From: an uncultured bacterium
Lineage (GTDB): Bacteria; Chlamydiota; Chlamydiia; Chlamydiales; JAAKFR01
Assembly (NCBI GenBank): GCA_964588495.1
Contig: CAZPPS010000001.1
Coordinates: forward strand, 53,367 to 117,366
DNA: 64,000 nt
Direction: 5' to 3'
The position numbers were made by a program, and so were the translations under genes. This document shows positions 34,541 to 34,924 of the stretch, one piece after another. The notes below the pieces were generated by a model. That model did no database searches. It saw nothing but the letters and a program-made list of their open reading frames with translations, and was not told the origin of the DNA. Positions within the stretch are counted from its first letter, which is position 1, and each line of letters starts with the position of its first letter.

Positions 34541-34924
34541 GCATGGCAGCCCGTGCTCGGAAATCCGTGGGTCGTTCTTTGTGGGCGCGAGATTGAGTTA
34601 GGGGGGAATGTAGCGGCAGTCGGACTTGAACCAACCTTCGTCGGTGGCTGCTGCCACTCTTCCGACAAAGCTCCGCTCGCCTGCCTTATGGCAGCCGTGC
34701 TCACATTGTCCCAGACGGAAATCCGTGGGTCGTTCTTTGTGGGCGCGAGATTGAGTTAGGGAGAATGTAGCGGCAGTCGGACTTGAACCAACCTTCGTCG
34801 GTGGCTGCTGCCACTCTTCCGACAAAGCTCCGCTCGCCTGCCTTATGGCAGCCGTGCTCACATTGTCCCAGACGGAAATCCGTGGGTCGTTCTTTGTGGG
34901 CGCGAGATTGAGTTAGGGAGAATG
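34541..34924 (-). repeat. Tandem array (about 2.4 units of 157-158 bp) containing the 3' 25 nt of the adjacent tRNA-Met plus its downstream flank
   Basis: Unit starts lie at 34559, 34717 and 34874. Each unit carries tagcggcagtcggacttgaaccaac (the tRNA 3' end) and, in inverse orientation, acggaaatccgtgggtcgtt (the tRNA anticodon-stem/variable/T-stem segment with the loop shortened). Confidence 0.9.

Follow-up and report, generated by a model that had tools for sequence, protein, structure and literature searches.

On the minus strand of the DNA analyzed here, a single 64-kb stretch that we refer to as the window, the gene order is leuS, waaA, an initiator-type tRNA-Met gene (tRNA-fMet), and a second tRNA gene with a CAU anticodon, which we refer to as tRNA(CAU) (Table 1). 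ARAGORN assigned tRNA(CAU) to Met, an assignment that does not discriminate between elongator Met and Ile2. There is a strong terminator-like hairpin between the two tRNA genes that stops 2 nt before tRNA(CAU), and inspection by eye revealed an equivalent inter-tRNA hairpin, of other sequence, at three related loci (L001, L008, and L009). Because of the position of this hairpin, tRNA(CAU) must be expressed via read-through or processing. Directly 3' of tRNA(CAU) there is a tandem array (34541-34950) in which a unit of 157 bp is repeated approximately 2.6 times, and the first gene past the array, in the same orientation as the tRNAs, encodes a GNAT acetyltransferase (33626-34456, minus strand).

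Table 1. Features of the tRNA(CAU) locus in window coordinates, listed in the direction of the tRNA genes.
Feature	Position	Strand	Method and remarks
leuS	36395-38857	-	
waaA	35127-36398	-	Kdo transferase gene
Initiator-type tRNA-Met(CAU), tRNA-fMet	35036-35110	-	ARAGORN; Rfam tRNA 65.7 bits; first of two-tRNA cluster downstream of waaA
Terminator-like hairpin and T-run	35008-35031	-	Terminator scan; 10 pairs, then TTTTTTT; between tRNA-fMet and tRNA(CAU)
tRNA(CAU)	34924-34998	-	ARAGORN; Rfam tRNA 67.5 bits; last 27 nt are the first array core
Unit 1	34794-34950	-	157 nt: core, 31-nt spacer, inverted tRNA 51 to 1 copy, 53-nt GC-rich segment
Unit 2	34637-34793	-	157 nt; equal to unit 1 save the first base
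Unit 3, partial and decayed	34541-34636	-	Alignment
Displaced direct core copies	34766-34792 and 34609-34635	-	tRNA positions 49-76
Inverted tRNA 1-51 copy, unit 1	34847-34891	+	Decayed 25-mer (34847-34871) and exact 20-mer (34872-34891)
Inverted tRNA module, other units	34690-34734; shortened, 34545-34576	+	
Hairpin CTTTGTCGG-AAGAG-TGGC-AGCA-GCCA-CCGACGAAG	34793-34827, also 34636-34670	-	RNAfold of one unit; abuts core, within 53-nt segment

Tandem Repeats Finder reported the array at 34558-34949 with a period of 157, 2.5 copies, 99% matches, and a score of 768, and alignment stretched the homology down to 34541. Both tRNAs are on the minus strand, so that downstream of tRNA(CAU) means toward lower coordinates. 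Read in the orientation of the tRNA, each unit consists of a core of 27-28 nt, a spacer of 31 nt, an inverted tRNA segment, and approximately 78 more bases. The core, GTTGGTTCAAGTCCGACTGCCGCTACA, corresponds to tRNA positions 49-76, that is, the T arm, the 3' strand of the acceptor stem, and the discriminator. It is present within the tRNA (34923-34949) and at two displaced sites (Table 1), both exact over 27 nt; the number of occurrences expected by chance was 0 (100 shuffles). The inverted fragment, ACGGAAATCCGTGGGTCGTT, is found at 34872-34891 and 34715-34734, with a 19-mer version at 34558-34576, and corresponds to tRNA positions 27-51 without five of the anticodon-loop bases. A first-pass annotation of this DNA had described a unit of 157-158 bp, repeated about 2.4 times downstream of the CAT-anticodon tRNA and carrying the last 25 nt of the tRNA together with a 20-nt copy in the opposite orientation. 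That repeat is real, with the period and copy number refined to 157 bp and approximately 2.6 by Tandem Repeats Finder and alignment, and its placement downstream fits the minus-strand tRNAs. Each unit does contain the direct 3' end, over 27-28 nt rather than 25, and the inverted copy is a 20-mer in units 1 and 2 and a 19-mer in unit 3.

The inverted copy extends beyond this exact fragment. The next 25 bases match the reverse complement of tRNA positions 1-25 at 15 positions in register, and this match was equaled by just 7 of the 63,176 25-mers in the window, making the extension significant. The alignment of the inverted copy covers tRNA positions 1-51 or 1-52. The in-register match points to a decayed inverted copy of the 5' two-thirds of the tRNA in every unit, a copy that probably continues, judging from these bases, to tRNA position 1. 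Three bases, GTT, at the boundary between the variable loop and the T stem belong to both the direct and the inverted fragment. In addition, a 9-mer, CTTYGTSGG, is located exactly at both tRNA-fragment junctions and hints at a more specific recombination event.

Of the 157 nt of units 1 and 2, only the boundary base differs; the other 156, among them all 129 nt that separate the cores, are identical. Unit 3 differs by a T>C substitution after the core, one or two insertions of a single nt, one of them also after the core, and the loss of 14 nt. Its end, at GGGCTGCCAT, is just beyond its inverted tRNA copy and 85 nt upstream of the start of the GNAT gene. The unit is completed by 53 GC-rich nt that fold into a long hairpin directly next to the core and had no match in the fetched loci. 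The non-tRNA parts of the unit are 57% GC, which places them in the top 1% of 84-nt windows, and the whole unit is 58% GC, compared to 43.5% for the genome. Such GC-rich sequence is odd for a neutral spacer and could reflect a foreign origin or a role as RNA. We considered and rejected the possibility that the array is coding: the only ORFs were generated by the repeat (20-87 aa), the 87-aa ORF had no Pfam hit, and there was no credible ORF in the 129 nt between cores.

The genes on the far side of the array differ from those upstream of it in their conservation. The minus-strand block from 26000 to 34000 has a GC content of 39-41%, compared to 43-48% in its flanks, and encodes two GNATs, a DUF7790 protein, a fatty-acid desaturase, two SAM methyltransferases, and a DUF2608 protein. 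None of the genes of this block was found downstream of tRNA(CAU) in relatives, and the block is not syntenic. The earlier annotation had likewise placed the array at the edge of an accessory gene block. The family of the GNAT next to the array comprises 20 database proteins, the sole named member being from a Rhabdochlamydiaceae MAG. Homologues in other Chlamydiae are in other genomic contexts, and several contain a eukaryote-type IQ calmodulin-binding motif, which would fit a host-directed effector. The idea that the unit moves together with the GNAT gene was rejected, as GNAT homologues elsewhere are found without the unit or a tRNA.

The nearest database relatives of WaaA are from uncultured Chlamydiae and are at most 68% identical to it, which means that no relative at the strain level exists. 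Relatives keep the order leuS-waaA-tRNA-fMet-tRNA(CAU), and the region downstream is unrelated in every relative sampled. In related Chlamydiae, tRNA(CAU) serves as a true hot spot of integration. Tyrosine integrases of one related family are encoded directly after tRNA(CAU) at two loci (L003 and L014), there is a pseudogenized integrase after it at L008 and an integrase fragment at L031, and L029 has an intact tyrosine integrase of 361 aa after a displaced tRNA copy. Classical displaced tRNA 3' fragments bound islands at L009, L029, and L016/L031. The displaced copies at L009, L016, and L029 are approximately 48 nt long, begin at the anticodon stem, and have kilobases of cargo before them.

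Two of these relatives have the same AbiEii-SDR-MFS mini-island between the tRNA and the 48-nt displaced copy (L029, 1-7917; L009, 3705-6812). At L029 the mini-island is followed by a second element, with the 361-aa tyrosine integrase and a DnaB-like helicase, a true tandem accretion at tRNA(CAU).

There was no tandem array at tRNA(CAU) in any of the 34 related or pattern-fetched loci. Matches to the unit in these loci were confined to its tRNA-derived parts; the non-tRNA parts had none. A scan of a genome collection recovered the core in four other MAGs, none with an array. A gapped pattern combining the core and the inverted fragment had no match in metagenomes, and both the core and the unit were absent from viral contigs in four scans.

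The closest known counterparts of the array are the tRNA-linked repeats of E. coli (TLRs; Egan and Landy 1978, Rudd 1999, summarized in PMC8144298), of which there are 22 in 10 loci, with one to five repeats per locus. What defines them is that each repeat has the same 3' end as the tRNA or rRNA gene upstream of it, over 18-19 bp for tRNAs in E. coli (PMC8144298). TLRs that follow 5S rRNA genes or rRNA operons are processed sRNAs, and those linked to tRNAs have no known function (PMC8144298). We checked the prototype of the tRNA-linked loci, E. coli K-12 tyrT/tyrV, directly. There is an array of 3.1 copies of a 178-bp unit after tyrV, with 95% identity; every unit closes with the final 19 nt of tRNA-Tyr, and the first unit carries the annotations rttR, for rtT RNA, and tpr. 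Each 178-bp unit also contains an inverted copy of the T arm of tRNA-Tyr, 22 nt long and 86% identical (L035, NC_000913 1286704-1287262). The inverted tRNA fragment, which the first-pass annotation had called unusual, is therefore also present in E. coli and is a trait of TLR-kind repeats rather than of att sites. To our knowledge, the inverted T-arm copy in the tyrT/tyrV repeats is not commonly noted.

The array in the window has every architectural trait of these repeats. It begins at 34950, within the 3' end of tRNA(CAU), and extends from there to 34541; the identity to the tRNA 3' end is exact over 27 nt in both displaced positions; and the number of repeats, two full units and one partial, is within the range of one to five per locus. 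Like the E. coli repeats, it is tandem and directly follows the second, 3'-most tRNA of an operon of two, and the dimensions are comparable: 2.6 copies of 157 bp versus 3.1 copies of 178 bp, a tRNA 3' segment in every unit of 27-28 nt versus 18-19 nt, and an inverted tRNA-derived piece per unit of 20-45 nt versus 22 nt (86% identical). In contrast, there is no sequence similarity between the two, the phylum and the tRNA are different, and the window array has no tpr-like conserved ORF. When 34400-35000 was searched against Rfam (E ≤ 10), no homology to E. coli TLR RNAs (e.g., RtT) was detected; the only matches were the tRNA and a chance antisense plastid hit. The source of the inverted piece is also different, being the T arm in E. 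coli and the anticodon, variable, and 5' part of the tRNA in the window, so that the window piece would pair with the tRNA body and not with the unit's own 3' end. The resemblance is one of kind and not of descent. We conclude that the array is probably a local tandem duplication of the TLR type, and as such a further case of a kind of repeat that is known but poorly understood.

In the origin that we favor, with moderate confidence, the last 27-28 nt of tRNA(CAU) and approximately 129 nt downstream of it were amplified head to tail. Replication slippage, or unequal crossing-over that involved the short repeats of the tRNA end, is the likely mechanism. What was amplified would already have been rearranged tRNA debris, made up of the direct 3' third and, 31 bases on, the decayed and inverted 5' two-thirds. 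A fold-back or template-switch duplication would yield such a direct and inverted arrangement, and the two fragments share GTT at the break. Because the tRNA-proximal units 1 and 2 are identical, they would be recent or homogenized, and the distal partial unit would be older, eroded where the accessory genes begin. The copy number of approximately 2.6 is not an integer, and a simple duplication would therefore require a later deletion at the distal end. Since tRNA(CAU) is targeted by integrases in relatives, recombination traffic there may have seeded the array. The array copies themselves are not separate integration scars.

In the terminator scan, the minus strand was free of terminator-like sites from 34923 to the start of the GNAT gene, so that read-through transcripts probably include the array. 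By analogy with the TLRs of E. coli, each repeated tRNA 3' end could act as a 3'-processing signal. We think that the array probably has no independent function. An alternative, which we consider unlikely, is that the co-transcribed units are cut at the tRNA 3' ends into functional RNAs of approximately 157 nt, like rtT or RrA/B/F, that are antisense to tRNA(CAU) or its precursor. The uninterrupted path from the tRNA into the array is consistent with this alternative, as are the 58% GC content of the unit in a 43.5% GC genome, the perfect 15-nt complementarity to the tRNA body that occurs three times, and the precedent of the E. coli TLRs downstream of rRNA operons, which are processed sRNAs (PMC8144298). 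The predicted minimum-energy fold of the unit also has features that would suit it, a 5-bp acceptor-like stem and an intact T arm. The z-score of this fold is only -1.34, but that of the annotated E. coli rtT RNA is similarly unremarkable (-1.06, no better than the unit's), so the fold z-score does not discriminate and a weak score does not exclude an RNA. Other observations argue against processed RNAs. There was no homologue in the fetched loci or the pattern scans, and hence no covariation or conservation; Rfam matches at E ≤ 10 were limited to the tRNA family; 17% of shuffles also gave the relaxed ARAGORN pseudo-tRNA call; the E. coli TLRs that are linked to tRNAs have no known function; and unit 3 is decaying. 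A more far-reaching version, which we regard as quite doubtful, is that the array is a functional and independently evolved counterpart of TLRs, whose GC-rich RNAs of approximately 157 nt, antisense to the tRNA(CAU) body, would titrate or control its maturation or drive the downstream accessory genes. If this were true, TLR convergence in a distant phylum would argue for a general TLR role.

The first-pass annotation had interpreted the array as stacked att-like sites left by integrase-mediated insertion. This could have happened by successive insertions and losses at tRNA(CAU), or by multiplication of a minimal attP-only remnant by an integrase whose crossover falls in the T-arm region. Several observations speak for it. 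Tyrosine integrases adjoin the tRNA or a displaced copy at L003, L008, L014, L029, and L031, displaced fragments are present at L009, L029, and L016, and real stacking has occurred at L029, where an island and a displaced copy are followed by the integrase of a second element. In the window, as at islands of the type collected in Islander, a direct repeat of a tRNA 3' end is found beside a low-GC, non-syntenic block of genes, the tRNA is one used by integrases in relatives, and attP sites in the T-stem region are a recognized class (PMC4383910). The idea of integrase-mediated insertion is supported for tRNA(CAU), a hot spot in relatives, but not for the array.

Islander identifies islands by a displaced direct fragment, an integrase, and island cargo, and accepts tandem arrays only if each member has its own integrase and fragment (PMC4383910). 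In the window, the displaced tRNA fragments are direct with the intact tRNA. However, no tyrosine integrase lies between the tRNA and a fragment, and the cores are separated by 129 non-coding bases, with an inverted tRNA fragment, in place of island-length cargo. Our searches agree with the first pass, in which no integrase or distal att copy was visible in the window: searches of the 64 kb by tblastn with the integrases of L003, L029, and L031 gave chance hits only (best E = 0.039), none of the 20 flanking ORFs examined with Pfam had a Phage_integrase domain, and there was no distal att copy, or further copy of the core, in the window at ≤3 mismatches or by word-7 blastn. The crossover subsites do not match, as the copies in the window begin at the T stem and are 27-28 nt long, whereas those of relatives begin at the anticodon stem and are approximately 48 nt long. 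The core is also absent from viral contigs. The identity of the 129-nt spacers is incompatible with independent events and indicates tandem duplication of one unit rather than independent integrations. We therefore judge stacked att scars to be distinctly improbable. A different integrase, of the T-stem class, could have acted at tRNA(CAU), and an old scar of that class could have seeded the unit that was then duplicated.

It is very unlikely that the units are former full tRNA copies, each now an 87-nt pseudo-tRNA, in which the 5' parts have diverged. At an 80% threshold ARAGORN called an 87-nt cloverleaf ending at each displaced core, and GGCTGCCATA resembles the tRNA 5' end, GGCGGCATA. However, 100 of 600 shuffles that kept the core (17%) were also called, a control that rules out the pseudo-tRNA, and unit and tRNA aligned in forward orientation had no significant similarity (p = 0.59). 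The Rfam tRNA model had no hit in the units, and ordinary divergence would not leave 28 nt at the 3' end 100% identical and the 5' part unrecognizable. Two other candidates were rejected. A forward copy of an fMet-like tRNA in the unit was not significant (p = 0.11), and a permuted-tmRNA call by ARAGORN at a relaxed threshold was disregarded because it spans repeats and has no Rfam support.

An assembly artifact, either a graph cycle of a shorter repeat traversed too often or a chimeric repeat, is the least probable explanation. In its favor, the contig looks like a draft or metagenome-style one, exact look-ups of WaaA, GNAT, and LeuRS gave no second assembly, and short reads could not fix the number of the identical units 1 and 2, whose count comes from this single assembly. 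Against it, no fewer than 1.6 copies must be real to account for three distinct junctions, those of the tRNA body with the core, of Q with the core, and of the variant unit 3 with the unique flank. The usual error of assemblers with tandem repeats is collapse, not expansion.

The TLRs of E. coli were recognized as early as 1978, and the tRNA-linked members are still without an accepted origin or function. A structurally parallel but unrelated chlamydial array, with a direct 3' end and an inverted fragment in each unit, indicates that this architecture is not an enterobacterial oddity. It arises either from a mutational process that is general to the 3' ends of tRNAs or from recurrent selective use. 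The array also calls for caution in island-finding, since tandem tRNA 3' fragments beside accessory genes need not be att sites.

One related locus provides an example of a duplication at the same place that does not involve an integrase. In L005 (MAG JAJACP010000001.1, 3949-4075, minus strand) a pseudo-tRNA that is an fMet/Met chimera is found 970 bp past the intact tRNA pair, with one antisense ORF between them. In the chimera, the upstream flank of tRNA-fMet and its body to the T loop lead into the 3' part of tRNA(CAU), the point of fusion being an AATCC microhomology. Like the window array, it is a rearranged downstream copy, without an integrase, that includes the same tRNA 3' end. Unlike the array, it is a direct-orientation fusion present as a single copy, not in tandem, and is separated from the tRNAs by a gene.

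The window also contains dispersed intergenic elements of approximately 200-220 bp, at 12030-12250, 42144-42340, and 49728-49945, and a short version at 3995-4080. What they have in common with the tRNA array is a single 7-mer, CTTTGTG, found once per array unit. They are built as nested 8-mer palindromes, with three to four copies of (A/G)CACAAAG and two to three of CTCTGTG, an AT-rich center, and then two to three copies of CACAGAG and three to four of CTTTGTG. The three full elements have a mean column identity of 78% and resemble MITE- or REP-type repeats.
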